Notes under the pieces: model-generated
Told to the model about the DNA's origin: nothing
What the model saw: the letters and a program-made list of their open reading frames with translations, nothing else
Databases searched by the model: none
Translations under genes and position numbers: made by a program
Virus record (IMG/VR): IMGVR_UViG_3300002301_000007
Span: 1-36,513 of that record
Origin: a virus
Taxonomy: Duplodnaviria; Caudoviricetes
Strand: one strand, 5' to 3'
Length of the DNA: 36,513 bases
Shown: one piece after another, positions 1 through 36,513 of the stretch
Position numbering within the stretch: position 1 is the stretch's first letter
How the letters are laid out: each line of letters opens with the position of its first letter

Positions 1-45
1 TGCCCCGGTTCCTTCACCCCCCGAACCTGCGCCACCCTTGAAACT
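1..45. repeat. Terminal direct repeat (left copy), circular-contig overlap
   Basis: 1-45 is identical to 36469-36513; the scaffold reading frame continues across the join. Confidence 0.97.
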
Positions 46-660
46 TGCTTTAACAAGATGAGGCCGATCGGTTAAGAACTTCTTTATTCCTGCCTCAACG
101 GGCATTTCAATATCAACACCGTTGGCATCTTTTCCGGGAATAACAACTTGCCCGGCTGCATTCAATTTGGCCTGACCTTTAATCATTGCCAAAACTTCTT
201 CATTGAAACCACCTTGCTTGCTGATCTCATTTGTTAAGGCGTGTTCAATGCGCAAATTATTAATCTCCAAATCCTTTGCGCTTAATTTTGTTGAAAAATC
301 GTTGATCTGCTTTTTAAGATTCCCCTCGGCTTCTTCATACTTTTTTTGTTTAACCAATTCTTCCTGCTTGCCTTGTTCTTGAGATTTTTCAAAATCTGTT
401 TTAAACTTTTTCAGATCATCGATCTCTTTTAAAGCAGGTTCATACTTCGCTTTGATTTCGCCAACGCGGGCATCGAGAGTTTTATCAAAGAAGGCTTGTT
501 GCTCTGCCGTAAATTTAACAGCCCCGGCAGCTTCGCCTTCACCTCTTTGGTTAAACAATAAAGCGCGGATCATGTTGCCAATGTCCATGCTTTTACGCAT
601 AATTAAATGCCCTATGATTCCCGTTGTGAATAATGCTAAAGCGATTTGAATTTTACTCAT
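1..660 (-). CDS. Capsid scaffolding protein, 5' part (268 aa in total; continues at 36468..36322)
   Basis: Not in the ORF track; translated by hand. ATG at 660 overlaps the portal stop (TAATG). MSKIQIALALF..NQRGEGEAAGAVKFTAEQQ, charged coiled coil, KFLTDRPHLVK plus Gly-rich tail; lies between portal and capsid. Confidence 0.88.
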   Translation of the reverse strand, partial: MSKIQIALALFTTGIIGHLIMRKSMDIGNMIRALLFNQRGEGEAAGAVKFTAEQQAFFDKTLDARVGEIKAKYEPALKEIDDLKKFKTDFEKSQEQGKQEELVKQKKYEEAEGNLKKQINDFSTKLSAKDLEINNLRIEHALTNEISKQGGFNEEVLAMIKGQAKLNAAGQVVIPGKDANGVDIEMPVEAGIKKFLTDRPHLVKASFKGGAGSGGEGTGA

Positions 661-2345
661 TACTTACCCCCTTGATTTTGACCCCCGGCTTTCCCGGTAT
701 TTTGGCCTGCGCCCGTTGCGCCTGCCCCTTGTGGCTGTAACTCATACGGCCCACCTGCTACCATTTGCTTCATCTTTTGAGCGAAACTATTCGCCAAACC
801 TTGCTGCGGAGCATTGGATTTTTGCGTGTTCTTTTTTTCCAATACTGTTATTTCATCAATCATGGTTTGAATATCTTCATCGCTTGCGCGAGGGAATTTC
901 TTCTTAACGATCGCTGACTTAACATCGATCATAAATGTTTCACCCATGCCCAAAGTTGCTTCGGCTTCGGCTTCTGTAATGTCGTCCATAATGTCGGATA
1001 TGGAAAACTCGTTTGGATATTGAATACTGCCGTCAAACTCCTTACCTTCCCAAGCTGCAAACAACTGCCAGATCCGCAATTCGCCTTCTTCAAAATTGGA
1101 AGCCTTGGTTGATAAAGATGAGTTGGTTTGATTAAATGACCACGCCTTTGATACACCGCTTTGAGTATCAACAGTTGCGCCACCTGCGGGCAATGATTTC
1201 GCGGATCCGCTGACACTTGCCCCGGCATCGATCTTTGCCAACTGAAAGATCTTAATGATTTGGCGATCGATATGATCGAAGTAAGTTGTTGCGTTGCTTG
1301 ATGGCGGAGAAACGTATTCTGGCTTGTTCATTCCTTCCGGGTATAGCAATCCCTTACCAGTACCAAGATCAAGCCCTGCGTAGGCATCGCTGTTGCCCTG
1401 TAGGGCCAAGAAAGCGAACGTCTGATCCCGCAAGATCTGTCTTAACTCGCTTGACGAGTTATAAATATCCCGGGCAATAAAAGCAATGTCTGCGATCTGT
1501 GAGATACCTAAGAAATTGCGTTGACGTTTGCTTTTCTTGTCATAAATGCAAACGATGGGAACTTGACCAAGGCCATGAACGCCATACTCAAGTTGGTTGT
1601 AATCCTTATCGTACAAAGTCCAATCTGTGCGAGTCCAAAGACGATATTGGACTTTCTCATTAACATCCCGATCGAACTGCAAAGGATCATCGTTTGCATC
1701 CGAGCATTCACGAACTAAAACCCAATATGGAAAACCAAATTCATCCAAGGCCCAATTCAAAATGTTTTGCGGTGAAAAAATTGTGAGGTAAGGAAATGCG
1801 CGATTCTCGATCTGATCCAAGCGCGTAACGATTGGCTTTGTCTTGGATATATTTGGACTATCCACAATGACAAAGCAATGTCCATAAACTTGCGCTGAAT
1901 CTGCGATCATTTTGCGGAAATCCTGAATGCAAGTTCCCATGCGATCAATATCATCTGTTACCTGCAAGATCGTTGATTCGATGGATCCCCAATCTTCAAC
2001 AACTGCTTGCTTAAAAAGATGATCTGAATAAATATCAATGATCGGAGCGCAGAAATTGTAATAATAACTCATGCCAACGCGCTTGTTATAATCATCGGCG
2101 CGCTCTTTAGGGTGCATGAATAAATTGCCGTAAATGATTTGCGTATTTTGTGCCTGACCGTTGACGTATAAATTCCACATCGAATCGAACGGCGCGCCAT
2201 ATTGCTGTTGATGCAAAACGCGGGAGTTTGAATAATCAATCCCGCCTTCGTAACTCTGCAAAAGAAATTCCCAATAACCATGATAACGCCGTTGGATCCA
2301 ATGAGGCGTTTCAATCAAATCTTTCAAATTAAGTTTTTGATCCAT
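660..2345 (-). CDS. Portal protein
   Basis: 561 aa downstream of the terminase; YYYNFCAPIID, DIDRMG, HGLGQVPIV and SGVSKA motifs typical of portals. Confidence 0.9.
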   Translation of the reverse strand: MDQKLNLKDLIETPHWIQRRYHGYWEFLLQSYEGGIDYSNSRVLHQQQYGAPFDSMWNLYVNGQAQNTQIIYGNLFMHPKERADDYNKRVGMSYYYNFCAPIIDIYSDHLFKQAVVEDWGSIESTILQVTDDIDRMGTCIQDFRKMIADSAQVYGHCFVIVDSPNISKTKPIVTRLDQIENRAFPYLTIFSPQNILNWALDEFGFPYWVLVRECSDANDDPLQFDRDVNEKVQYRLWTRTDWTLYDKDYNQLEYGVHGLGQVPIVCIYDKKSKRQRNFLGISQIADIAFIARDIYNSSSELRQILRDQTFAFLALQGNSDAYAGLDLGTGKGLLYPEGMNKPEYVSPPSSNATTYFDHIDRQIIKIFQLAKIDAGASVSGSAKSLPAGGATVDTQSGVSKAWSFNQTNSSLSTKASNFEEGELRIWQLFAAWEGKEFDGSIQYPNEFSISDIMDDITEAEAEATLGMGETFMIDVKSAIVKKKFPRASDEDIQTMIDEITVLEKKNTQKSNAPQQGLANSFAQKMKQMVAGGPYELQPQGAGATGAGQNTGKAGGQNQGGK

Positions 2346-13809: not shown

Positions 13810-14358
13810 ATGCCAGTTGTAGCCCCAATGCCAGTAACAGTTTACGCTAAATATGAATTTAGCGAAGATGAAAAGAAGCAGTTAGGCCAAGAATTAGCCG
13901 GGAAGATCGACCGGGCCGAAGGATTAAAGACGGAAAAGAAAAGCCTTGTTTCAGAGATTAATGAGCGTATCGATGGCGCGCTTAATGATATTAAAAAGAT
14001 CTCGAGCAATATCAACCTTGGATTTGAAACAAGATCCTATACCTGCAAGGTTGAGAAAAATTTTAAATTGAAGATCAAAGAGTATTACTGTATCCATTCC
14101 GGCAAGTTGATCGAAACAAAGAAATTTGAACCGCATGACTTCCAACAAACCTTCGATGATGTAAAGCAAGATGATAAAAAAGAGATCTCAAAATCCGGGA
14201 AGGATATAAATCCATCGATAGGACAAGGACTTGATATTTTAGCGACCAAGGAAGAAAAGAAAAAGGCCGTTGGCAAAGCGTTTGATAAAGAAGCAACAAA
14301 GATCTTAAATAAAGCTGGGATCAAAAAGAACGGTCAACCATCAAAGGCGAAAAAATGA
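13810..14358 (+). CDS. Hypothetical coiled-coil protein
   Basis: AAGGAG before ATG 13810. Confidence 0.7.
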   Translation: MPVVAPMPVTVYAKYEFSEDEKKQLGQELAGKIDRAEGLKTEKKSLVSEINERIDGALNDIKKISSNINLGFETRSYTCKVEKNFKLKIKEYYCIHSGKLIETKKFEPHDFQQTFDDVKQDDKKEISKSGKDINPSIGQGLDILATKEEKKKAVGKAFDKEATKILNKAGIKKNGQPSKAKK

Positions 14359-14780
14359 TATTGATCGTCTATCTTGTGGTTTGCGCGCTTATCACGCATT
14401 GCGATTTAATGTTCCGCATGATCCCTGACCGATTTGTTTTGGTTGGAATTATTGGAGCAATGATATTAAATTGCGATCGATCTCTTGGGTTTATTGGATC
14501 CGTTGAAGGAATGCTGATCGGCGGTGGATCTATCTTTATCGCAGGCATCCTTTGTTTTCTTATATCGAAGAAGCCCGCGCTTGGTGGTGGGGATCTTAAA
14601 TTACTTGCCATGATCGGCGCATTTTGGGGATGGCAGGTTGCTTTAACAACCTTTGCCATCGCCCCGATCATGGGATCACTTTGGGCCGGGATCCTGAATC
14701 GAACAAAATTGCCTTATGGAATCTTTTTAATCGTGGCATCATTTATTGCCTTAATTATTGGGAGAGTTTATGGATATTAA
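14355..14780 (+). CDS. A24-family (prepilin) aspartic peptidase, short TadV/CpaA-like form
   Basis: Multi-TM; catalytic Asp motifs HCDLMFRMIPD and LGGGDLKLLAMIGAF; C-terminal LPYG. Confidence 0.93.
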   Translation: MILIVYLVVCALITHCDLMFRMIPDRFVLVGIIGAMILNCDRSLGFIGSVEGMLIGGGSIFIAGILCFLISKKPALGGGDLKLLAMIGAFWGWQVALTTFAIAPIMGSLWAGILNRTKLPYGIFLIVASFIALIIGRVYGY

Positions 14781-15597
14781 AGTTTCGCTGTTTGCTTCTG
14801 CTGTCCGGATACCATTTTATAAAGTGTTTCTAGATTCTTTGGTTGGAACGACGGAGAAGATCGAAGTTGTTTTCTGTGGCCCGAATACTGAAAAAGAGAT
14901 CATGGAAGGCTTTCCCGGCTGCCTTTTTATAAAAGAGGAAGATTTTATAACCGAAGGGTTTTTAACAACGATGAATTATAAGGGAATCTTGTTTAAATAT
15001 CTTCATTCCAAAAATATCAAACCTGCGCAATGTTACGAAGCTGCGCGCCGGGCCTGTCGTGGTGAAACAATCGCTTGGACGGCTGACGATGCAGAGCATA
15101 CGCCAGATTTATACGGCAAAGCATATCGATTTTGGAAAGATCTTAATAATGAGAAAGCAATCCTTTCAATCCAAACCGAAGAAAATGGTATGTACTGCAA
15201 TATGAAAGTTCATTCCTTTTTTGGCTGCCAGTTCCATACGCCGTTAATGGCTCCGCTTGCCCTTATGTCCGGGGCTTATTGCGAGAAACTTGGCGGATTT
15301 GATAGACGATATATATGTGGACAATATGAAAATGAGTGTGTTATGATGGCCGTTGCAGATGGAGGATGTGTAAAAATATTTGGAGATAGAGAAAATAAAA
15401 TCATCCTCGATCACTATCGCAGGCATGGAATAAAACGGCCCTTTGCCACAGGATATAATCATGATCGAGAGATCCTTGAAAAATCTTGGACAGATGGTAA
15501 AGGTAAAGTTTCTTTAGTTCGGAATGATAACCATGAGCCATATGAATCAGAAGGGATTTTAGAAACCTCTCAATCTTATAAAGGACAATGGGAATAA
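14770..15597 (+). CDS. Glycosyltransferase, GT-A fold
   Basis: VSLFASAVR, CRGE.IAWTADD, LGGFDRRY. Confidence 0.8.
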   Translation: MDIKVSLFASAVRIPFYKVFLDSLVGTTEKIEVVFCGPNTEKEIMEGFPGCLFIKEEDFITEGFLTTMNYKGILFKYLHSKNIKPAQCYEAARRACRGETIAWTADDAEHTPDLYGKAYRFWKDLNNEKAILSIQTEENGMYCNMKVHSFFGCQFHTPLMAPLALMSGAYCEKLGGFDRRYICGQYENECVMMAVADGGCVKIFGDRENKIILDHYRRHGIKRPFATGYNHDREILEKSWTDGKGKVSLVRNDNHEPYESEGILETSQSYKGQWE

Positions 15598-16002
15598 ATG
15601 CCAAGTGGAATTTATAAAAGAAAGCCTGAACAAATTAAAGCACTCGTGGAAATGAACAAGTCGATTTCTCATCGCAAAAAAGTTAGCAAGTCTTTAATAG
15701 GACATAAATTCACAAAAGAAACACTTAAAAAAATGAGCAAAAATCATGCCGATTTTAATGGTGATAAAAACCCTAATTGGAAAGGCGATAAAGTTGGAGT
15801 TATTGGAGTCCATATTTGGTTAAAAAAATATTTTAAAAAAACTATGATTTGTTATTTTTGTAGGAAGAAATGCCTTACAGATTATGCTTTACTTAAAGGT
15901 AAAAAATATCAAAGAATGCGTGAAAATTTTGTCGAATTATGCCGTAAATGTCATGTTCATTACGATAGAAATATCACAACCTACATTGTGGAGGGTAAAT
16001 GA
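15598..16002 (+). CDS. NUMOD3/HNH homing-endonuclease-like protein
   Basis: GHKFTKETLKKMS, NPNWKG, CYFC..LCRKCH; AT-rich. Confidence 0.8.
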   Translation: MPSGIYKRKPEQIKALVEMNKSISHRKKVSKSLIGHKFTKETLKKMSKNHADFNGDKNPNWKGDKVGVIGVHIWLKKYFKKTMICYFCRKKCLTDYALLKGKKYQRMRENFVELCRKCHVHYDRNITTYIVEGK

Positions 16003-16964
16003 GCGAAAACATACTAATTACAGGAATTACGGGATCCGGTGGATCTTACCTTGCCGACTATATTCTCGAATATCATCCCCGCGTTAAGATCTTCGGCCTG
16101 CATCGATGGCATTCCGCAGGAACATTAAACAATATCGAACATATAAAGGATAAGATAACCGTCCTTGAATGCGATCTCTTGGATCTTTCATCCATAATCC
16201 GGGCCTTAGAGATCTCTAAGCCTTCGCGGATATTTCACCTCGCAGCCTTTGCAAATGTTCGCAAGTGTTTTGATACCCCGATCGCAGTTGTTAATAATAA
16301 CACGATGGGAACCGCAAATCTTCTTGAGGGGATCCGATTAGTTTGCCCGGAAACTGTTTTGCAAATGTGTTCAACTTCCGAGATCTATGGCAATCCTCTT
16401 AATTTCCCCATGACCGAGCAACATCCAATGAAACCTGTTAATCCCTATTCGGCTTCTAAATTAGCGCAGGAGGCTTTATCTTATGCTTATTTTAAATCAT
16501 TCAACCTCAAGGCTATTATTACAAGGATGTTTGCTTATATTAACCCCCGTCGAAGGGATTTGTTTGCTACTGCTTTTGCGTATCAGATCGCAGAAATTGA
16601 AGCGGGAAAGAGGAAATTTTTATCTCATGGGAATCTTGATAGTATTCGTACCCTTATTGATGTTCGCGACGCTATGCGCTCTTATTGGATAGCATCGGAA
16701 CAATGCGTTTTCGGTGAAGCATATAATATCGGCGGAGTTGATGTTATTTCTGTTGGCGATTTCCTTGAGATATTAAAAAAGCATTCCAAGGTTGAGATCA
16801 TATCCAAACAAGATCCCGCGCTCATGCGCCCGGTGGATGTTACCAAACAGATCCCGGATACAACAAAATTTGATGCTTTAACAGGCTTTAAATGCAAATA
16901 TTCTCTCGACAATTCTGTTGATTTCCTTCTTGAGCAAGTAAGAAGGGAGGTTAACGCAAAATGA
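15999..16964 (+). CDS. GDP-mannose 4,6-dehydratase / GDP-6-deoxy-hexulose reductase family SDR (Gmd/Rmd-like)
   Basis: LITGITGSGGSYLA, FHLAA, STSEIYG, PYSASK, GNLDSIR, LMRPVD. Confidence 0.88.
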   Translation: MSENILITGITGSGGSYLADYILEYHPRVKIFGLHRWHSAGTLNNIEHIKDKITVLECDLLDLSSIIRALEISKPSRIFHLAAFANVRKCFDTPIAVVNNNTMGTANLLEGIRLVCPETVLQMCSTSEIYGNPLNFPMTEQHPMKPVNPYSASKLAQEALSYAYFKSFNLKAIITRMFAYINPRRRDLFATAFAYQIAEIEAGKRKFLSHGNLDSIRTLIDVRDAMRSYWIASEQCVFGEAYNIGGVDVISVGDFLEILKKHSKVEIISKQDPALMRPVDVTKQIPDTTKFDALTGFKCKYSLDNSVDFLLEQVRREVNAK

Positions 16965-17050
16965 TATTTATATTTGTCGGCATCTTCTTTTTAGGATTTA
17001 TTGTTGGCGGGACAACTGTTTTTATGTTAATCATTCGCAATTTTAAATAG
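16961..17050 (+). CDS. 29-aa single-helix membrane peptide
   Basis: GGAGG plus ATGA coupling; MIFIFVGIFFLGFIVGGTTVFMLIIRNFK. Confidence 0.5.
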   Translation: MIFIFVGIFFLGFIVGGTTVFMLIIRNFK

Positions 17051-17058
17051 GAGCAAGC

Positions 17059-17202
17059 ATGACACAGGACGAATTTAAAAAAGTTCTATTGGACGAGATA
17101 ACCTCGCATCCAAAGACAACATGGATCCCATACGCAGATGCTTGCGCTATCGTGGATGTAACGTTTGAAACGTTAAAAAAATTAAGCGAGGAGATTAAGT
17201 GA
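17059..17202 (+). CDS. Hypothetical 47-aa protein
   Basis: AGGAG RBS; stop overlaps the next GTG. Confidence 0.55.
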   Translation: MTQDEFKKVLLDEITSHPKTTWIPYADACAIVDVTFETLKKLSEEIK

Positions 17203-17561
17203 ATTGCTTAGATTGTGGGAAAATTACTTCTATAAAGAGCAAAGCAAGATGTATTTCTTGCGCAAATCGTCATAGAAACATAACACATAGAGGCGATAAA
17301 AGTTATTTTTGGAAAGGAAAAGACGCTTCTTATGTGCAAAAACATAAATGGATCAATCAAATTTTAGGGCAAGCCACTTTTTGCAACGAACCTAATTGCT
17401 CAAAAACTTCAAATTTTTATGAATGGGGAAACATTTCGGGTAAGTACCTTCGTGATGTTTCAGATTATAGGTCAATGTGTCATTCTTGTAATATAAAAAT
17501 GGACAATAGAAAGAGAGATAAAAATGGAGTATTTATTAAGCGTTCTTGTTCCGTCTATTAG
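17199..17561 (+). CDS. HNH homing-endonuclease-like protein
   Basis: CLDCG..RCISC, WKG, H.WI, YEWGNISG, MCHSC. Confidence 0.75.
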   Translation: MNCLDCGKITSIKSKARCISCANRHRNITHRGDKSYFWKGKDASYVQKHKWINQILGQATFCNEPNCSKTSNFYEWGNISGKYLRDVSDYRSMCHSCNIKMDNRKRDKNGVFIKRSCSVY

Positions 17562-18375
17562 GCCAAATAATTTACAAAGACTTTATGAATCTATAGAAAG
17601 GTCATTTTTTGGAAGTTTTGAAATGATTGTGATTGGGCCATATCCTTTGCCTGATGTATTGAAGGATAAGAAAAATATTAAATGGATTGAGGATTTTGGC
17701 TCACCTATCAGAGCGCAACAAATTGGATTAAATCATGTGCGGGGAGTTTTTGTTTCGTGGGCAGCGGACGACGGATTCTTTCTTGATAACGCATTAACCA
17801 TTGCATTCAATAAATTCTTTGAAGGCGTGATCGATGCTGCCGTTGCTAAAAACCATGAAGTCATTTTGAAGGCAATGGATTGGCATGACTCTCCCGGGAT
17901 CGCATTCGATTATAAGAAACTCGTCATGGGTAAATATCAAGAAGGGCCACGATTAAACGATGGCATGGAAAAGGATTGGTATTATATTTTATCAAACCAT
18001 GAGTCAATGAAGATGCCCGGTGTTATTAAAGGATTTTATATGCTTAACGTCGGTCTTGTGCCAACTAAACTTTTGCTTGAGGTTGGCGGTTGGGATGCTG
18101 CAAGTTTTGAAGTTTGTCCAATGGCGTACAACGATTGCGCTCTGCGTCTGCAAAACTTTGGCGTTGAGTTTTTAATCCAAGATGAAATGATGTTTTCCTG
18201 CTCTCACTTGCCCGGACTATCGGGAGATCATGGCCCGATACATAACGCGCAAACATATCACGACGAGCCATTGTTTAAAACAATTTATAAAGATCATGCG
18301 GTAACAAGAATATTTATCGATCTTGATAACTGGAAGCAAGCCCCGGATCGATGGCAAAGGAGGTTCGGAAAATGA
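17524..18375 (+). CDS. Glycosyltransferase, GT-A fold
   Basis: LSVLVPSIRP, RG.FVSWAADD, EVGGWD, DCALRLQ. Confidence 0.85.
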   Translation: MEYLLSVLVPSIRPNNLQRLYESIERSFFGSFEMIVIGPYPLPDVLKDKKNIKWIEDFGSPIRAQQIGLNHVRGVFVSWAADDGFFLDNALTIAFNKFFEGVIDAAVAKNHEVILKAMDWHDSPGIAFDYKKLVMGKYQEGPRLNDGMEKDWYYILSNHESMKMPGVIKGFYMLNVGLVPTKLLLEVGGWDAASFEVCPMAYNDCALRLQNFGVEFLIQDEMMFSCSHLPGLSGDHGPIHNAQTYHDEPLFKTIYKDHAVTRIFIDLDNWKQAPDRWQRRFGK

Positions 18376-20479: not shown

Positions 20480-20953
20480 TTAGAACATTTTCAATGCCCA
20501 ATTCATCGATATTGCGATCGCCAACGAACGTGCAAGATCTTCCCATAAAAAATCGAAATTGCCAATCTTAAATGCGGATCCGGCCCGGATCTGAAATGCG
20601 CCAATAACTAAAGGCATTCCAAACAAAGCCCAAGGATTATTGCAAACCAAACAAGCGATCGAGATCCCAAGAGAAACCCAAAGCGCGTAAATGATCCGCG
20701 TTTCAGTATCATTTTGTTTGTCGAATTTTGCGATCCAACTTTTTTCACCATAACCGAATGCTAATTCAAATCCAAGCGACCATGCCAGAAATCCCCACCA
20801 CCAAGGATCCGGGCTTTTATCGATGAAATGATGGACAAAATAGATCCCGGAAATACTTAATGCAACGCCGACGGGACGGATCCACTTCATCGTTTGACCG
20901 CCCCACATATAAAACAACACCGCTAAAGGAATTGACCAAGGTATTAAAATCAT
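20480..20953 (-). CDS. Polytopic membrane protein
   Basis: Several Trp/Gly-rich hydrophobic segments. Confidence 0.7.
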   Translation of the reverse strand: MILIPWSIPLAVLFYMWGGQTMKWIRPVGVALSISGIYFVHHFIDKSPDPWWWGFLAWSLGFELAFGYGEKSWIAKFDKQNDTETRIIYALWVSLGISIACLVCNNPWALFGMPLVIGAFQIRAGSAFKIGNFDFLWEDLARSLAIAISMNWALKMF

Positions 20954-21010: not shown

Positions 21011-21418
21011 TTATAAATTAGCCCAAACAATATTTTGATTTGCCAGAATAGTTGTTAAAGTATCGATCTCCGTTTGATTTAATTTGCTTGCTGATTTAAG
21101 CCCCAATGCCATTACCTTCATCCCTGAAAAATTTTGGAAAGTTGCAAGATCTTTAACTATTGCATAATAAGGTAAGATATTTGCATCCGCAGCAAAAGCA
21201 GTTAAGAGATCAGAGCAAAATTGATCGACATTGAAAACCTGTGCTGCTGTCAAAGGAGCGACGTAAATAACAATCGCATCCAACGTTGCTTGATCTGCAA
21301 CCTCGACTTGAGTTAATCCTTCTGACGGATCGGAATGCTCGCCAATAGGGAACTCGTATTTGCTAACAACATTATTATTTGAATCTTTAAAATATCCGAA
21401 GCCTGTCGTTACTTGCAT
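21011..21418 (-). CDS. Putative tail-fibre assembly/accessory protein
   Basis: GGAGG RBS; follows the tail fibre gene. Confidence 0.55.
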   Translation of the reverse strand: MQVTTGFGYFKDSNNNVVSKYEFPIGEHSDPSEGLTQVEVADQATLDAIVIYVAPLTAAQVFNVDQFCSDLLTAFAADANILPYYAIVKDLATFQNFSGMKVMALGLKSASKLNQTEIDTLTTILANQNIVWANL

Positions 21419-21426
21419 AAATCCTC

Positions 21427-22239
21427 CTAAGATCCTGATGGTCTGAAATACATTGCGGAAGATCCGCCGGGATTAGATAAGTCTATACGATAATAATCAC
21501 CCTTCTTTACTGTAAAAGACATACAATCGCCGATTGTAACGCCCCCGGATCCTTGAAAGTATCCTTTCAATGTGCTTGGACTTGTGCTGCTATCAGTATA
21601 TCCTGCGCCAACTGTTTGAGGGCCACCGTTAACGTTAGTACAATAACCCTCAACGATCCCGTCTGTTGCAGCCTGATAATTTGTTCCGAATGATTTAGAA
21701 ACAGATGCGCCATAACCAACAACGGCCCCGATTGAAACAACATTTGCTTGAAGGATATTATTTGAACCATCGGTTAATAAAGATCCTATCTGACGATAAA
21801 AAGTAAAGCCCGATGGCGCGGATGAACTTGTTGAGAGTTTACAAAGGAATGTTGTTGCGCTCGCATCTGCGACTATATAAACATAATAAGTCGTATTAGA
21901 AGCAACGGAGCCAGTATCAAGCATCGTAAAATCAACTGTCAAAGGTGAAGTATTTCTTCTAAAGCGTAGATTTCCAGATCCATCCGGGATCGAAATTTCT
22001 CCGGCTGCAACCGTTATATTAGACGATGAATTATAAGCAACTAAACATCCTTGCTTATAATTATAAAGCACATTCTTGAACGATTCTGTAAAACTTTGAT
22101 TGCATCCCATAACGCCAAGCATTGTTTCGATCGCTGTTACCTCGTCATAAGGTGAATTAAAAAGAGATGCAACGAGTTTTGTTACCCCGTCAACAACTGA
22201 CGAAAAAGTTTTTAATGTATTCGGATATGATGCCGACAT
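21427..22239 (-). CDS. Tail fibre / receptor-binding protein
   Basis: LDTGS..NTTYYVY, PSGFT.YR.IG, C-terminal YQAATDG..VKKGDYY beta domain. Confidence 0.7.
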   Translation of the reverse strand: MSASYPNTLKTFSSVVDGVTKLVASLFNSPYDEVTAIETMLGVMGCNQSFTESFKNVLYNYKQGCLVAYNSSSNITVAAGEISIPDGSGNLRFRRNTSPLTVDFTMLDTGSVASNTTYYVYIVADASATTFLCKLSTSSSAPSGFTFYRQIGSLLTDGSNNILQANVVSIGAVVGYGASVSKSFGTNYQAATDGIVEGYCTNVNGGPQTVGAGYTDSSTSPSTLKGYFQGSGGVTIGDCMSFTVKKGDYYRIDLSNPGGSSAMYFRPSGS

Positions 22240-22248
22240 AAGATCTCC

Positions 22249-23523
22249 TTAATATTGCTGCAAGTTAGCGAGAGAATTATCAATTCGCTTTAAAATTGCC
22301 ACCGTTAGCAATCGTGTATCTCCAAATTGAATCGTTGCATGGAAGCGATCGGAAGTATCTGACATTGCGTATTGAACGTTATCAATCTGCGCGTTATACT
22401 CTCCACCAACAAAAACATCACTCCCGCCCGTTGCTGCTATGCCGATCGTTATATCGCTTCCGCCACTTGCTGCTGTTCCTATAATATTCCCAACATTGTC
22501 TGTTAACAGATCTCTATCGTAATCAATATCAAAAATGTTGATGAGGCCGATCGGGATCTGATCTTCAAGCCTAAAATTTGTATTGCGAATAACCACCCGC
22601 ATATTTAATTGCGGTTGAGATCCGGCAGCAATCGTATTTCCAAGGTATTCATCGGCAACTGTTTCTGTCGTGATCGATCCATTGTTAACGATAACTTCTG
22701 ATAGATAATAAAGAGCGATGCTGTCTGTGTTTTGAAGTTGAAGTTTAAATTTGGATCCCGCAACGGTTCCACCCACTAAATATGCGCTATTAATTAAAGC
22801 ATCGAAGTTGATCTTTCTTTCAAATGTTTCTACATCATCACCCGCAAAATATCTTTTCCGAACATTAATTCCTTCGGGAACCCAAAAAAAGTTTAAATTT
22901 TGATCGATGCCGTACTCATATCCTTCGGACAATCCAAATAAAGTATTTAGAGCATCGTCAACGGTTGTCAAAAATTGTATTGTATCCGGCGTAAAAGTTC
23001 CCGGCGTTATCGTCCCTGTTTGAATTGGCGTATTTGGTGTAACAAAAGTATTCATTATGTCTTTAACTATTAATGAAACTTCGGTGTTTGTATAGGTTCG
23101 CGTACTTCCGGAAGTTTGAACGATCAATTTTTTAAATAAGCCAAAATATCCAACAACTTGAACTTTGATAACCTGTGGCACTCCAAGCGTCGGGATAGCA
23201 TAAGAAACATATCCGCGATAAACGAGTTTTGATTTTGTTGGATTTGCGGGATCCTTTATTCGGATCTGTATATCATCCCGGGCTTGCCAATCGAATTTTC
23301 GGTAATCCTTGTTTAATGTAATTGAGCAATCGCCACAACCGCCAATTCTATTCCATGTCCAAGATACATCCGTTACCCAAGGAGTTAAGTAACTTTTAAT
23401 ATTGCCGTTTTTATCTCGCAACTCGACGCTATAACCTGACGCAGAAAGATGGCGTTTAGGCGTTGGTAAACCAAGGCCGATCGATAGTTTTAATGGTTGA
23501 ACTTGTACCGTTGTTGTTGGCAT
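22249..23523 (-). CDS. Tail tip / baseplate hub protein
   Basis: Position after the Dit-like gene; beta-rich, 424 aa. Confidence 0.7.
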   Translation of the reverse strand: MPTTTVQVQPLKLSIGLGLPTPKRHLSASGYSVELRDKNGNIKSYLTPWVTDVSWTWNRIGGCGDCSITLNKDYRKFDWQARDDIQIRIKDPANPTKSKLVYRGYVSYAIPTLGVPQVIKVQVVGYFGLFKKLIVQTSGSTRTYTNTEVSLIVKDIMNTFVTPNTPIQTGTITPGTFTPDTIQFLTTVDDALNTLFGLSEGYEYGIDQNLNFFWVPEGINVRKRYFAGDDVETFERKINFDALINSAYLVGGTVAGSKFKLQLQNTDSIALYYLSEVIVNNGSITTETVADEYLGNTIAAGSQPQLNMRVVIRNTNFRLEDQIPIGLINIFDIDYDRDLLTDNVGNIIGTAASGGSDITIGIAATGGSDVFVGGEYNAQIDNVQYAMSDTSDRFHATIQFGDTRLLTVAILKRIDNSLANLQQY

Positions 23524-27446: not shown

Positions 27447-27866
27447 TTAACTGTAAGTTAAAGCATCAAGAACTTTTAATTGAATTGTCAAAACAAAATA
27501 ACTCTTAACCTCCTCGATCTTCCAAGATTTGTACCGCAAAATTGTGCAATAAGTATTCCAACTCGCCGGATTATCGAATTTTTGAATTAAAACATCCGCG
27601 AGATTTTGCAGCCTATCTTGTTGAATAATTGCGGACTCAACATTTTTCCCATAGGCTATTTGAATTGTCCATTTCTGATCGTCATAAAGAAAAGCCTGTT
27701 GACGCTCATTTTCGGGATCTTCCTGACCTGACAATCGATTTAAAATATAAGTATGCTCATGCTCCTCGGCCCCGGCACTCTTAAAGTTATCCGTTTCTTT
27801 TGATTCTGTGAGTTGTTGGGCGTGAAGCACCGCTTCTAATCCTGCCTTAACTATTGAGTAAGACAT
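27447..27866 (-). CDS. Tail terminator/completion protein
   Basis: Size and position just before the tail tube. Confidence 0.6.
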   Translation of the reverse strand: MSYSIVKAGLEAVLHAQQLTESKETDNFKSAGAEEHEHTYILNRLSGQEDPENERQQAFLYDDQKWTIQIAYGKNVESAIIQQDRLQNLADVLIQKFDNPASWNTYCTILRYKSWKIEEVKSYFVLTIQLKVLDALTYS

Positions 27867-28402
27867 TATTGTTTACCTCGCATGATCGGATCCACTTCCG
27901 TTGTTTCTGCCGGAAGTAAAAGACATTGACAGTTATTCCCGCAAATTGTTGCCCCTGTTCTTGGCAATCCTTCGGCTTCCCATTCATCCCATGTTTGAAC
28001 TTGATTATGCCTCTCCAAGCAATCATCACAAGTATTTATCAAGACAGCAATCCAACGATAGGGCGTATTAACGCCAAGATCTGCGAATATAGCATTATCT
28101 CGAGTTCGGCTAATTGCCCCCTTGGTTGTTGATCTTATCGCGTTTCTAAAGGCTCCAAAGATCCTGCCACCATTGTTTAAATCATCCAATAGATCTGCTT
28201 CAATAACCGCAGGATCCGCACCTTGGGCCAAACGGGTTTGAATATACTCATCGATCGTTACGGCTGCCTGCGATGCCTTAGAAGTCAAAAAGATCTGCAT
28301 CGTTTCGATCTCTTTTGAATTTAGATCGTTGATAATCTGATCTTGTTGAGCCTGTGGATCTTGTGGATCCGGTACGCTTGTATTATCCGGCTGCGATGGC
28401 AT
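27866..28402 (-). CDS. Minor head morphogenesis protein (MuF/SPP1 gp7-like domain)
   Basis: YRW.....TCDDC..RH and CG.NC.C.L motifs. Confidence 0.75.
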   Translation of the reverse strand: MPSQPDNTSVPDPQDPQAQQDQIINDLNSKEIETMQIFLTSKASQAAVTIDEYIQTRLAQGADPAVIEADLLDDLNNGGRIFGAFRNAIRSTTKGAISRTRDNAIFADLGVNTPYRWIAVLINTCDDCLERHNQVQTWDEWEAEGLPRTGATICGNNCQCLLLPAETTEVDPIMRGKQ

Positions 28403-28823: not shown

Positions 28824-29110
28824 TTCGCTGCATCCTCTTGGTTCTTTGTAGGATCCTTTGAAGGATCCACAACTACGCGCCGGGCATCAATTACCTTTGC
28901 CAACTTTAAACCGTCAAGATGCGCCAAAGGTTGATATTTGTCGATGATAATATTATTTACTTCCTCTGTTACTCGGCCCAATTCGTTATGCGGATTAGCG
29001 ATTAACGCTTTGATATTCAAAGTTGAAAGGATCTTATCAACCTCGTTTAATACGTCTGCGTTTATCGCATCGATGCCGTCTAAATGTTTATGCAATGCCT
29101 GACTAAGCAT
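28820..29110 (-). CDS. Hypothetical helical protein
   Basis: Overlap-coupled on both sides. Confidence 0.6.
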   Translation of the reverse strand: MLSQALHKHLDGIDAINADVLNEVDKILSTLNIKALIANPHNELGRVTEEVNNIIIDKYQPLAHLDGLKLAKVIDARRVVVDPSKDPTKNQEDAAK

Positions 29111-29813
29111 GAACTGTCGCTTTCTGCCATTTCTTTTTAAAGATCTGGCTGCGGGCCATGCTCGACTTCATATATTCAACATGACCAAGGCAATTCGGAT
29201 TGTTTACCGACGAATTAATCGCATGATAATATTTCCCAATTAAAGTATTCATCCCCGCAGCCCATTGATCGATACCCTTGGCCTGCATTTGCATCCAACT
29301 ATCAAGATCCTCGTATCCATAGCCCGGGCCATAGGATTCATCGAATCGGATCTTCTCAAAAACTTCTCTGCGATAGATCCCATAATAAATGCAATGCCCA
29401 TGATGAATGCGAACGGGATCCAATTTAGAACAATAACTCTCATGGTGTTCGTTTCTAAAAGTATTCTTGCGATTGGTAAACTTATCCGGGAAAAAACCGA
29501 TCGCCTTGCATTCGGGATGCGTATCTAAATAATTCTCAAGCATATTGATTGAATTTGGAACGGGAATAACATCCCCGTCGATCAAAAAGATATACTCTCC
29601 TTTGCTTGCATCCACTCCTTGATTTTTGCCTTTTGAGATCCCGAGATTAGTTGGATTTTTGATTGTCGCAAGATCTTGACAGCCATCGATAGAACCATTG
29701 TCAACGATAATGATCTCTGCTTTTTTTCCCATCAACTCTTGCTTTAGGATCTCAAGCGTTGCGTTTAACGTTGGCAAAGTGTTCCATGTGAGAATATTAA
29801 TTGATAGTTTCAC
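29103..29813 (-). CDS. GT2 glycosyltransferase within the virion module
   Basis: SINILTWN, IIVDNGSIDG, NLGISKGKNQG, YIFLIDGD, GYEDLD. Confidence 0.93.
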   Translation of the reverse strand: MKLSINILTWNTLPTLNATLEILKQELMGKKAEIIIVDNGSIDGCQDLATIKNPTNLGISKGKNQGVDASKGEYIFLIDGDVIPVPNSINMLENYLDTHPECKAIGFFPDKFTNRKNTFRNEHHESYCSKLDPVRIHHGHCIYYGIYRREVFEKIRFDESYGPGYGYEDLDSWMQMQAKGIDQWAAGMNTLIGKYYHAINSSVNNPNCLGHVEYMKSSMARSQIFKKKWQKATVHA

Positions 29814-31496: not shown

Positions 31497-33149
31497 TCAT
31501 AGCCCCGAATGAGTTTGATTATTAACCGCATTTGCTTTCGTTATTCGACGGAGAGCATTAATCTTGTTACTATTTTTGGGCTGTTGATTATGAGTTGCTA
31601 TCGTTATTCGACGGAGAGCATTAATCTTGTTACTATTTTTGGGCTGTTGATTATGAGTTGCTATCCTTATTTGTCGATATACCTCAAGAACTGTTGGAAC
31701 TCCAAGCGATAGCGTTAAGGTGAGAGGCGCAACAATAATCGTCTTGTTAAATGCAAGCGCGATCGCCGGATTGTTCAATAAGAAATTAATTGTTAATGCG
31801 TTTGGTGTCATTAATGCTTGCGGTGTAACACCACCAAGCAAAGACGTTAAACTTAATGGGCCAATGATTGACTTACATTCTTTCGTCGAAGTTCCTAAAG
31901 CCAAGGATGCTGTCAAGGCATTCGGAGAAACCTTTGCTTCTGTGGATGCTGTTTGAAGTGATAGTTGGGCTGACAATGGATTAGGATTTATCGCAACTGT
32001 TGGATTAACACCAACTACGCTAATTGATAAAGATAATGGCCCAACAACAACGATCTTTAATCCGGGGACGGAAACTGTAACAGGATTTAATAAAAGCGTA
32101 ATAGGCAAAGATCCGGGAACATTTATAACCATTGGAATTGCGCCCGGCAGATTTAAAGTTGCCTGTAAAGCATTGGGAGAAACATTGACGATCGTTGTCG
32201 ATGATTGCAATGATAAAGTTGCAGCCAAGGCAGATGCTATGAATTGAACCGTTTTAGTTGGCGCGATCAATGCCGAGGTTATGCTTAGAGGATTTGGGTT
32301 GATCGTTATAGATTTGATAGGTGCGATCAAAGATGATGCTAAAGACAAGGGCGCGGGCAAAATACTGATCGCCGGAACTGGCCCAACAACTGAAATAGAT
32401 AAAGATAATGGAGAAACAGGAACATTTTTAACTGATGCTTTTGAAATACTAACCGATGGCAATGCTAAATTTCCAGATAAAGGAGCAGTTATTTTTAAAA
32501 CTGAATGAGTTGTTGATGGAAGATTTAATGTTAAAGACAAAGCAGATGGAGAAATATTTAAAATTCCACCACCGCCAAAATTATCAAAAATTGACAATCC
32601 GCCTAATTCATTATCTGACCCAAAGCATAAATAAAATGTTCCTGAATATGTAGAATCGTTGGCAGATCCAAGTGATGCCCATGCCCCTGCCCCGGATTTA
32701 TAGTATCCCGTTAGAACGCCTGCGATAAAAGAAATTCCTATACTATCCGCGCTTGAAACTTCTTGATTAAAAGTTCCAAGGGTTGTAAAAACACCATTAT
32801 CTTGACGCGCTAATGTTATAACGTCTGTTCCCGCTTGTTTAGAAACATTTATGTTATACCCACTCGGTGTTGATGATGATATTTTTGATGGAATGATAAC
32901 ATCGATATAAATATCATTTGTTGTTTGTATCGTTGAAATTAAAAAATAGCATTCAATTCCCGGGCCAAAAGTAGTTTTCCAATAATTCTCACAATATCCC
33001 GATGTTCCCACTTGGGTTGTTACTTGATTGGTTACAATTTGTAAAGAATCGGCAGCAGGAGAAAATGGTTCACCCCAATTTGTTGAATTAAGAGGATTTT
33101 CATTTGCTCTATTAAAATTGTCTAATATGCCGTTAATTGGGAAACTCAT
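31497..33149 (-). CDS. Virion decoration/fibre protein: beta-sandwich N-domain plus S/T/P-rich repeats
   Basis: DNFNRA start; roughly 18-19 copies of a V.P.(A/P)L.L.L.L..P strand motif. Confidence 0.7.
   Translation of the reverse strand: MSFPINGILDNFNRANENPLNSTNWGEPFSPAADSLQIVTNQVTTQVGTSGYCENYWKTTFGPGIECYFLISTIQTTNDIYIDVIIPSKISSSTPSGYNINVSKQAGTDVITLARQDNGVFTTLGTFNQEVSSADSIGISFIAGVLTGYYKSGAGAWASLGSANDSTYSGTFYLCFGSDNELGGLSIFDNFGGGGILNISPSALSLTLNLPSTTHSVLKITAPLSGNLALPSVSISKASVKNVPVSPLSLSISVVGPVPAISILPAPLSLASSLIAPIKSITINPNPLSITSALIAPTKTVQFIASALAATLSLQSSTTIVNVSPNALQATLNLPGAIPMVINVPGSLPITLLLNPVTVSVPGLKIVVVGPLSLSISVVGVNPTVAINPNPLSAQLSLQTASTEAKVSPNALTASLALGTSTKECKSIIGPLSLTSLLGGVTPQALMTPNALTINFLLNNPAIALAFNKTIIVAPLTLTLSLGVPTVLEVYRQIRIATHNQQPKNSNKINALRRITIATHNQQPKNSNKINALRRITKANAVNNQTHSGL
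31538..31665. repeat. Perfect 63-bp tandem duplication (21 aa)
   Basis: 31538-31600 equals 31601-31663; IATHNQQPKNSNKINALRRIT. Confidence 0.95.
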
Positions 33150-35375: not shown

Positions 35376-36296
35376 CTATGCAGCGTTCAAAAATTCCATT
35401 TGATCGCCCCAGTTATTTTTGAGGATAGCATCACCCCAAATAACTGAACCTGTTACCTGCCAGCCTAAATTCGGGCCGTTAAACAAAACGTCAATCCGGA
35501 AATCACGTTTAGGAACGGATTTGATCGAATTGCGGGAAAACGCTGCGCCGATAGCGTTGCGGGATGTTGCTGCAACGTTAGCATCGGCATACAAATCGAA
35601 CCCGAAGATCCGACCCGCGAAACCGTTACGCATAAAATCTTCGCCTGTGCTTCCCTGTCCGCCTGCTGCTGCATAGGAGAAATGGGAACTATCTGCAACG
35701 TTGGCGAAGAAGTTAATCAAGCCCTTGCTTGACCAGATTTGGCCGGGATGCAAAACAAGATTGTAAGGCTGTGGAGCAATCTTGATGCGCAGGAAATTAT
35801 AGGCGTCAAACAAATCCTGCGGTGTCATCGCGGTATTCGCTGCACCTTCGTTTTGGGTAAATGAAGAAAACAACCCGCACAAAGTTACGTCTTTTGCGGT
35901 CATAATCGATTGCCCGATCAACTGGCCCGCAACCGCCATAAGATCATCAACCGTACCAAGAACGGCGATCTCTTTTAAGAATACCGTTGAACCCCAAACG
36001 GAAACTGTCGCATTGGAAGGCGACCCGGTATATAACCCGGAATCGATGGCCTGATTAGCCATCGTATCATCGTTTTCTGCTGTCAACTTCGCGATGATAG
36101 GTGTTGAATGAACTACGCCCGGCCCCGGGAATGGATAAGGCGTTACTAACGGCTCAACGATCCCCAACTCTGTCATTTCTAACAGAGCAACCGACACCGC
36201 CGTTGGAATTGCTTCCGTCATGGTGGTTGTGGTTGTTTCGTTTGCCCCGACCTCGTTCAAGGCCCAAAGCAAATACAACTTAAAAATTTCTTTCAT
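35376..36296 (-). CDS. Major capsid protein with 17-aa leader
   Basis: AGGAGG before ATG 36296; follows scaffold; YNLVLHP.Q, G.AGRIFGFDLY...NV typical of HK97-fold capsids. Confidence 0.9.
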   Translation of the reverse strand: MKEIFKLYLLWALNEVGANETTTTTMTEAIPTAVSVALLEMTELGIVEPLVTPYPFPGPGVVHSTPIIAKLTAENDDTMANQAIDSGLYTGSPSNATVSVWGSTVFLKEIAVLGTVDDLMAVAGQLIGQSIMTAKDVTLCGLFSSFTQNEGAANTAMTPQDLFDAYNFLRIKIAPQPYNLVLHPGQIWSSKGLINFFANVADSSHFSYAAAGGQGSTGEDFMRNGFAGRIFGFDLYADANVAATSRNAIGAAFSRNSIKSVPKRDFRIDVLFNGPNLGWQVTGSVIWGDAILKNNWGDQMEFLNAA

Positions 36297-36321: not shown

Positions 36322-36513
36322 TTAACGAGCAACCTTCCTGGCTGCTAACATCGCGTTAATTTTTCCCTTGAGTTCAGATCTTAATTTCAGATCTGTGCCT
36401 TTACAGGCTTCGGCGTACTTCACGTTGAGGCTATCAAGTGTATCCTCACCACCGCCCCCGGTCTGACCTGCCCCGGTTCCTTCACCCCCCGAACCTGCGC
36501 CACCCTTGAAACT
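36322..36513 (-). CDS. Capsid scaffolding protein, 3' part
   Basis: In-frame continuation of 660..1 across the join; TAA at 36324-36322. Confidence 0.85.
   Translation of the reverse strand, partial: SFKGGAGSGGEGTGAGQTGGGGEDTLDSLNVKYAEACKGTDLKLRSELKGKINAMLAARKVAR
36469..36513. repeat. Terminal direct repeat (right copy)
   Basis: Identical to 1-45. Confidence 0.97.

Follow-up and report, generated by a model that had tools for sequence, protein, structure and literature searches.

Leaders on the scaffold and capsid proteins of phage 80alpha are cut off by the host protease Prp, as a preliminary description of the DNA studied here had noted, and phage Cp-1 has a protease of the same clan (PMC9405229); the purpose of the 80alpha/Prp cleavage is still unclear (PMC5744158). 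The heads of phage T4 form on the inner membrane and detach from it after proteolysis (PMC9026906). A24 prepilin peptidases have their active sites at the cytoplasmic membrane face (PMC10191384), and class III (prepilin) signals consist of a hydrophilic leader ending in Gly, followed by 20-25 (about 21) hydrophobic residues (PMC10191384, PMC4471445). Here we report on IMG/VR virus record IMGVR_UViG_3300002301_000007, a stretch of 36,513 nucleotides analysed over its whole length and called the window below, which encodes an A24 membrane protease together with a capsid protein and a head scaffolding protein that both start with a leader ending in Gly. We favour, at a probability of roughly 0.55, the reading that an intact prepilin-peptidase-type protease clips these head-precursor leaders after the Gly (G40 of the scaffold, G17 of the capsid), this being host PilD by default and a phage copy in the present genome.

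The A24 enzyme and the genome that encodes it

The gene and its catalytic residues are located as follows.

14355..14780 (+): stand-alone A24 (prepilin-peptidase-type, GxGD) membrane protease, 141 amino acids (aa), without a methylase domain; assigned by PF01478, a match to FlaK and its tree group
14403..14405 (+): codon of the first catalytic aspartate, D17, identified in the sequence; invariant in 14/14 short homologues, also in a second phage family
14583..14594 (+): GGGD motif with the second catalytic aspartate, D80, identified in the sequence; invariant in 14/14 short homologues

Domain, catalytic residues and fold all place the enzyme in the A24 family, in agreement with the preliminary description, which had seen an A24-like membrane protease with both Asp motifs. 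PF01478 (Peptidase_A24) matches at 48.2 bits (E 1.6e-12, against a cut-off of 26.5) with the domain beginning at residue 4, and the AlphaFold model (predicted local distance difference test, pLDDT, 88) has six helices, with the GxGD protease FlaK as the best of 48,161 chains (Z 11.6, root-mean-square deviation 2.9 over 128 residues; next Z 6.8). Foldseek aligned the model with FlaK at a template-modelling (TM) score of 0.60 and E 0.85. PF06750, the N-terminal four-Cys zinc/methylase domain, is absent from the 141-aa protein, which is not a bifunctional PilD. A complex prediction of the enzyme with capsid residues 1-36 scored 0.00, and as the controls did not fold, it is used neither way.

A profile search of 1.84 billion representatives returned eight further close short A24 relatives, and a rapidly built tree (89 rows) unites 22 short A24 proteins in a single group (support 92, unstarred) that is separate from 56 full-length PilD proteins; the two phage A24 groups, which have long branches in the trees, may have one origin or two. 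No A24 relative was found among 50,697 annotated phage records, and a genome-collection scan gave a single 4-kb contig with no host. Scanning 6 of 64 parts of a metagenome set with the A24 alignment yielded 80 loci, none scoring like the phage type and most being full-length cellular PilD, many with Cys pairs and some clipped at contig ends. The two nearest named cellular relatives are prepilin peptidases of Omnitrophota, a phylum with Tad and type IV pilus genes according to a preprint (10.64898/2026.06.07.730766), the part of which available to us says nothing on head-protein processing.

The 36.5-kb record is a complete tailed-phage genome with 45-base direct terminal repeats, the minus strand carrying the terminase, portal, scaffold, capsid, connector and tail genes and the plus strand the recombination, nuclease and sugar-modification genes. 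It had been taken as complete and devoid of a pilin gene, and both statements were confirmed, by the terminal repeats and by the lack of any N_methyl or Flp pilin match in its six frames. As to the accompanying statement that no prohead protease is recognisable, six-frame profile searches of the genome gave no S78, Prp (PF04327) or Clp protease, with S78 and Clp controls matching, no classical prohead-protease Pfam match was found among 60 scanned open reading frames (ORFs), and in the ORF map the portal-scaffold-capsid stretch has no protease gene in between; the S77 search was uninformative, its controls giving no match, and two weak matches to PHROG 'head maturation protease' profiles turned up. 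The first (27866-28402, E 1e-5) was rejected as MuF-like (PF04233 E 0.09) and gave no match in a genome-wide search with the same PHROG. The second (27447-27866, minus strand) weakly resembles the C-terminal part of phrog_133 (E 0.004), a profile labelled 'head maturation protease', and by position is more likely a tail-completion protein. A 157-aa membrane protein (20480-20953, minus strand), with look-alikes near the lysis region of relatives, was also weighed as an alternative protease and dropped, family searches giving no match.

The leaders of the capsid and scaffold proteins

The head genes and their leaders are arranged on the minus strand across the terminal repeat.

35376..36296 (-): major capsid protein, HK97 fold, 306 aa; the predicted model matches phage capsids (best E 1e-11), and tblastn matches annotated major capsid proteins
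36246..36296 (-): leader of the capsid protein (residues 1-17, LNEVG at its end), predicted to be cut after G17; AGGAGG ahead of the ATG
1..660 (-): head scaffolding protein, residues 1-220 of 268, with the rest, across the terminal repeat, in 36322-36513; E 5e-14 to phrog_206 (head scaffolding protein), and circular translation
541..660 (-): scaffold leader, residues 1-40, with a hydrophobic segment, an amphipathic stretch and FNQRG, predicted cut after G40; such a leader in 25/56 distinct scaffolds
36322..36513 (-): 3' end of the scaffold gene, the final 45 bases being the repeat of the window start
660..2345 (-): portal protein, directly upstream of the scaffold; phrog_145, E 4e-66

The leaders ending in LNEVG (G17) and FNQRG (G40), to which attention had been drawn beforehand, are conserved in homologues at the protein level. 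Within the first 45 residues, an N-x-x-G-type motif is confined to the capsid and the scaffold, 2/56 called genes (shuffled mean 0.08, P 0.0035), by a pattern written after the motif was seen. The best 120 of 150 capsid homologues, minus one fragment and one sequence without the anchor motif, gave 118 classed capsids, comprising 86 with an x-x-x-G leader (the class is defined by this Gly), 25 without a leader and 7 with another type; in a separate analysis, of 78 close capsids, G17 is at least 90% conserved. The Gly lies nine residues from the downstream anchor in 62/86 leader-bearing capsids, and the Met of leaderless capsids lies 8-9 residues from it in 22/25. Because leaderless homologues begin at the predicted cut position, we infer that the leader is removed after the Gly. 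In the capsid model the leader is a helix (residues 2-16), followed by a low-confidence linker (15-24) that spans G17. The loci retrieved gave 56 distinct scaffolds, of which 25 bear the leader (20 recognised by script and 5 by eye), 6 a different one and 25 none. The leader is optional on capsid and scaffold independently of each other. A leader of this kind is common to both proteins, from which it would be removed. A LamG-domain virion-module protein opens with the same leader (G002; L003:5701-7194, FLNNRG), as do 3/120 glycosyltransferase homologues (P0144, P0150 and P0160). The window capsid itself is only 24-28% identical to three of the annotated phage records, and its profile gave no sequence match to a solved structure.

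Other leader endings occur in the family, namely PIAGG, LFA, LIG, LMLG and FGLG (P0099, P0103, P0111, P0120; L016, L017, L019, L041, L057, L200), a variation that suggests swaps between processing systems or hosts.

The motif could in principle be a DNA feature, its purine-rich codons acting as a ribosome-binding site for an internal start and the 'leader' being a mis-called extension; the window scaffold motif indeed reads AGAGGTGA, and Met follows right after the Gly in 10/86 capsids. The codons argue otherwise, with Arg written in all six codons, Gly mostly as GGT/GGC and only 4/33 leaders having an in-frame start codon no more than four codons away from the Gly, and a good AGGAGG precedes the first ATG of the capsid. 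Selection therefore acts on the leader peptide and not on a hidden ribosome-binding site, a reading that was largely refuted by the codon test and that we rejected as highly improbable.

Co-occurrence of enzyme and leaders, and rival readings

Viral scans revealed A24 in five other records (G001, G046, G047, G048 and G054), and leader-bearing head proteins are encoded in 5/5 of these (6/6 with the window). G001 is a close relative (capsid 69%), in which leaders are found on the scaffold, the capsid and the glycosyltransferase directly after its A24. The remaining four records, uncultured and 41-42 kb in size, belong to another family with a PF13252 capsid (~440 aa) and no BLAST similarity to the window capsid or portal. 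Their A24 gene stands directly upstream of a leader-bearing scaffold, followed by a leader-bearing capsid where the record extends; the enzyme is short, has both Asp residues and is 26-39% identical to the window enzyme over local matches, and the leaders read [DSN]-[EQ]-x-G. The pairing of leader and A24 occurs in two unrelated phage families. Further virion-module proteins of this second family have DEKG, DEQG, DERG or DESG leaders (G046 966-2599; G054 21105-23016).

Whether enzyme and leaders occur together in related phages had been put forward as a check. Every viral genome with A24 does have leaders, and leaders also occur without A24; the co-occurrence is one-way, A24 implying leaders and leaders not implying A24. 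Several facts of this kind weigh against a cleavage of the head leaders by the phage enzyme, and they are brought together here. A24 is absent from 4/4 other complete genomes of the window's family. In the complete G058 genome capsid and scaffold both start with leaders, two profiles found no A24, and no hydrophobic GxGD frame turned up; the glycosyltransferase cluster has its orthologue there, a different gene standing upstream of the glycosyltransferase. G011 and G033, also complete, show the same portal-scaffold-capsid order with no leader, A24 or protease gene, and in G041 (75% complete) the scaffold bears a leader and the available part shows no A24. In the window's family 14-21 kb separate the A24 gene from the head genes, which are on the other strand, and A24 is tied to a glycosyltransferase gene. 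Uncleavable mutants of 80alpha are viable, only the intact scaffold leader being essential (PMC5744158), which calls for caution against a 'licensing' role. The host, moreover, is a guess, an Omnitrophota type being proposed from the two named homologues above. Among the other relatives, G014 and the 87%-complete G068 have other leader endings, a weak A24 match in G073 was dismissed (two stops), and most records are fragments, uninformative on the presence of A24. The phage copy of A24 is thus optional and not needed family-wide, and a missing prohead protease is the family default, hence no argument for A24. The earlier proposal that the phage enzyme replaces a missing prohead protease or licenses assembly finds no support, given G011 and G033 and the leaders of G058, which lacks A24.

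The leaders add to the facts on this side. It had also been held that known prepilin peptidases cut such leaders, which is not supported, in that true class III signals have their hydrophobic residues after the Gly, and these leaders have them before it. The end in Gly/Ala is shared (G17, G40), and prepilins from cellular loci end in like P-side motifs (NEKG, NNKG, NKKG). The leaders are not hydrophilic, those of capsids having a mean hydropathy of +0.72 and a net charge of +2 and those of scaffolds a 15-residue segment with a hydropathy of at least 1.39 in 19/20 scored. The sequence after the Gly is polar and lacks the run of 20-25 hydrophobic residues, often with Glu+5, of class III signals: the 15-residue hydropathy is at most 1.07 in 20/20 scored scaffolds, in which +1 is usually Glu, and the 19-residue maximum in capsids has a median of 1.14. 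Judged by their sequence, the leaders are not class III signal peptides, and the feature that they share with these is the leader end. The endings LFA, LIG, LMLG and PIAGG further imply that the leader may mainly be a membrane or folding tag with interchangeable ends.

This last idea can be taken further, to leaders that are membrane-targeting or folding tags uncut by A24 (either kept or removed by an unrelated host protease), their likeness to prepilins being superficial. Such a view accommodates the lack of a hydrophobic run after the Gly, the several other leader endings and the finding that 80alpha assembly needs the intact scaffold leader, not its cleavage (PMC5744158). Without a Gly-specific cut it is hard to see why unrelated proteins keep a conserved N-x-[RK]-G at a constant spacing from the mature start, and why A24 neighbours the scaffold and capsid genes of the second family. 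We regard it as improbable.

That the host prepilin peptidase alone cuts the leaders, with the phage A24 acting on host prepilins and altering pilus assembly or receptor display, also seems to us an unlikely course of events. A cut at the natural Gly gives a mature pilin, not a lost receptor, which speaks against this account, as do the leader-bearing head proteins in 6/6 viral A24 records, the A24 gene abutting the scaffold gene in the second family and the separate superinfection-immunity gene of the genome (10322-10492, plus strand; PF14373 E 1e-18). In its favour, the A24 gene is located in the early/middle strand, away from the head genes, the leaders of G058 work without a phage A24 copy, pilins would stay unmethylated for lack of a methylase domain (domain roles in PMC10191384), and prepilin peptidases are promiscuous (PMC4471445).

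The surroundings of the A24 gene in the window bear on a further alternative.

14770..15597 (+): glycosyltransferase-like gene overlapping the A24 stop, without a leader in the window; PF00535 weak, E 0.005
15999..18375 (+): remainder of the sugar cluster; G058 and G033 have orthologues
15999..16964 (+): nucleotide-sugar dehydratase; PF16363 E 2e-61
17524..18375 (+): second glycosyltransferase-like ORF, labelled from its sequence and neighbours; no family match

A24 of the window's family travels with a glycosyltransferase. Indeed, 10/26 contigs with an A24 homologue are equal in size to a contig with a glycosyltransferase homologue (jittered mean 0.18, maximum 2), an indirect linkage, and such size matching cannot show the absence of A24, as the A24 of the G001 phage is itself missing from the homologue lists. 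The three leader-bearing glycosyltransferases fall into three separate subclades and are all linked to an A24, one directly (G001) and two via equal contig size. By the same indirect measure, one A24 homologue is equal in contig size (38,613 bases) to the contig of a close leader-bearing capsid. The enzyme might accordingly be part of a sugar-modification cassette, kept to process a leader on a cassette product, be it the neighbouring glycosyltransferase or another, with the head leaders left to the host; both the 10/26 matching contigs and the three linked leader-bearing glycosyltransferases fit this. The window glycosyltransferase and 9/12 of the A24-linked ones have no leader, however, and the peptidase is still intact; glycosyltransferase and head leaders have the same motif, and one enzyme is therefore expected to cut both. 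We hold it improbable that the cassette is all that the enzyme serves.

Some neighbouring features were noted in passing. An ETTTTTM threonine run at capsid residues 18-30 (36207-36245), right after the predicted cut, is kept in nearly all homologues; as a matter of speculation it is a candidate glycosylation site, in a genome with four glycosyltransferase-like genes and a sugar dehydratase. A family 2 glycosyltransferase (29103-29813, minus strand) sits among the head-tail connector genes at a position conserved across the family. The C-terminus of a 550-aa protein (31497-31640, minus strand) contains a direct repeat of ~22 residues, RITIATHNQQPKNSNKINALRR-like, possibly an assembly effect or a recent duplication. 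Promoter and terminator scans of the genome gave results no better than chance.

Proposed mechanism and known systems

The cleavage of head-precursor leaders by a prepilin-peptidase-type protease can be put as a sequence of steps. Its base is the family, fold and both catalytic aspartates of the enzyme together with the conserved leaders. The leaders of capsid and scaffold would then be removed after the Gly, a cut that A24 is likely to make and that host PilD probably makes in relatives without the gene. The hydrophobic/amphipathic leader may tether the precursors to the cytoplasmic side of the inner membrane, the side on which A24 has its active sites; procapsids would nucleate at the membrane, and the cut would release or trim the precursors. 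In doing so the enzyme would read the residues before the cut (the basic/amphipathic stretch and N-x-[RK]-G) in a prepilin-like manner, though with the anchor on the other side. The phage copy was probably captured from host PilD with loss of the methylase domain, and it could serve as a dispensable supplement, making the phage independent of how much host enzyme there is or of what that enzyme recognises. A host-derived processing tag would be the simplest account of all these patterns. A more far-reaching version, which we put forward tentatively and consider rather doubtful, is that the prepilin-type leader serves as an address tag tethering scaffold, capsid, decoration proteins and glycosyltransferase to the inner membrane in phages of Omnitrophota-type bacteria, where procapsids are built and perhaps glycosylated, and that A24, captured by two unrelated phage families, releases substrates with an anchor opposite to that of any known prepilin.

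No phage prepilin peptidase acting on head proteins came up in the literature searched, which is largely open-access main text and includes passages of PMC5431838, PMC7504290, PMC10011098, PMC6563490 and PMC12378983. What is new is that A24 is linked to a glycosyltransferase and that the family can, on the evidence, do without a phage copy. If the reading is true, the maturation of tailed-phage heads also involves a membrane aspartic protease, an addition to the enzyme classes known for it, and prepilin peptidases can cut soluble non-pilin substrates with a reversed anchor topology, which bears on substrate recognition. One phage family would moreover offer a natural series, from leaderless through leader plus host enzyme to leader plus phage enzyme.

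Compared with the A24 prepilin peptidases (PilD/GspO, TadV/CpaA/FppA and archaeal FlaK/PibD), the window enzyme shares the peptidase domain, the two catalytic Asp, GxGD and the FlaK fold; like Tad-type enzymes it has no methylase, and the proposed cut, as in prepilin peptidases, comes after a Gly with a basic residue at -2. Unlike cellular PilD it is phage-encoded, 141 aa long and in a tree group of its own, with no pilin in the genome, and its proposed substrates, unlike prepilins, are soluble and belong to the head, and their hydrophobic segment precedes the cut.

The enzyme does not count as a prohead protease of the HK97/T4 kind. Unlike the classical prohead proteases, A24 is encoded outside the head operon in the window and is not required across the family, whereas in the second family, with its other capsid (PF13252) and portal, the gene is inside the head operon. 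T4 and SPN3US offer an analogy for the proposed tethering, in that head precursors lie at the inner membrane and are released after proteolysis; there, anchoring is by the portal, and the protease is gp21, a soluble serine enzyme that sits within the prohead and is essential, in contrast to the optional A24.

The closest likeness in operation is to 80alpha and Prp, with a short leader common to scaffold and capsid that is copied from a host substrate, and no classical prohead protease; as with 80alpha/Prp and Cp-1, a host enzyme would act by default and some phages bear a copy of their own. Prp is a soluble cysteine protease that cuts at F|A within an LQFF|A-type motif, unlike the membrane aspartic protease and the Gly site proposed here, in a genome with no Prp gene. 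The system would work like Prp-type leader processing and is not a member of it.
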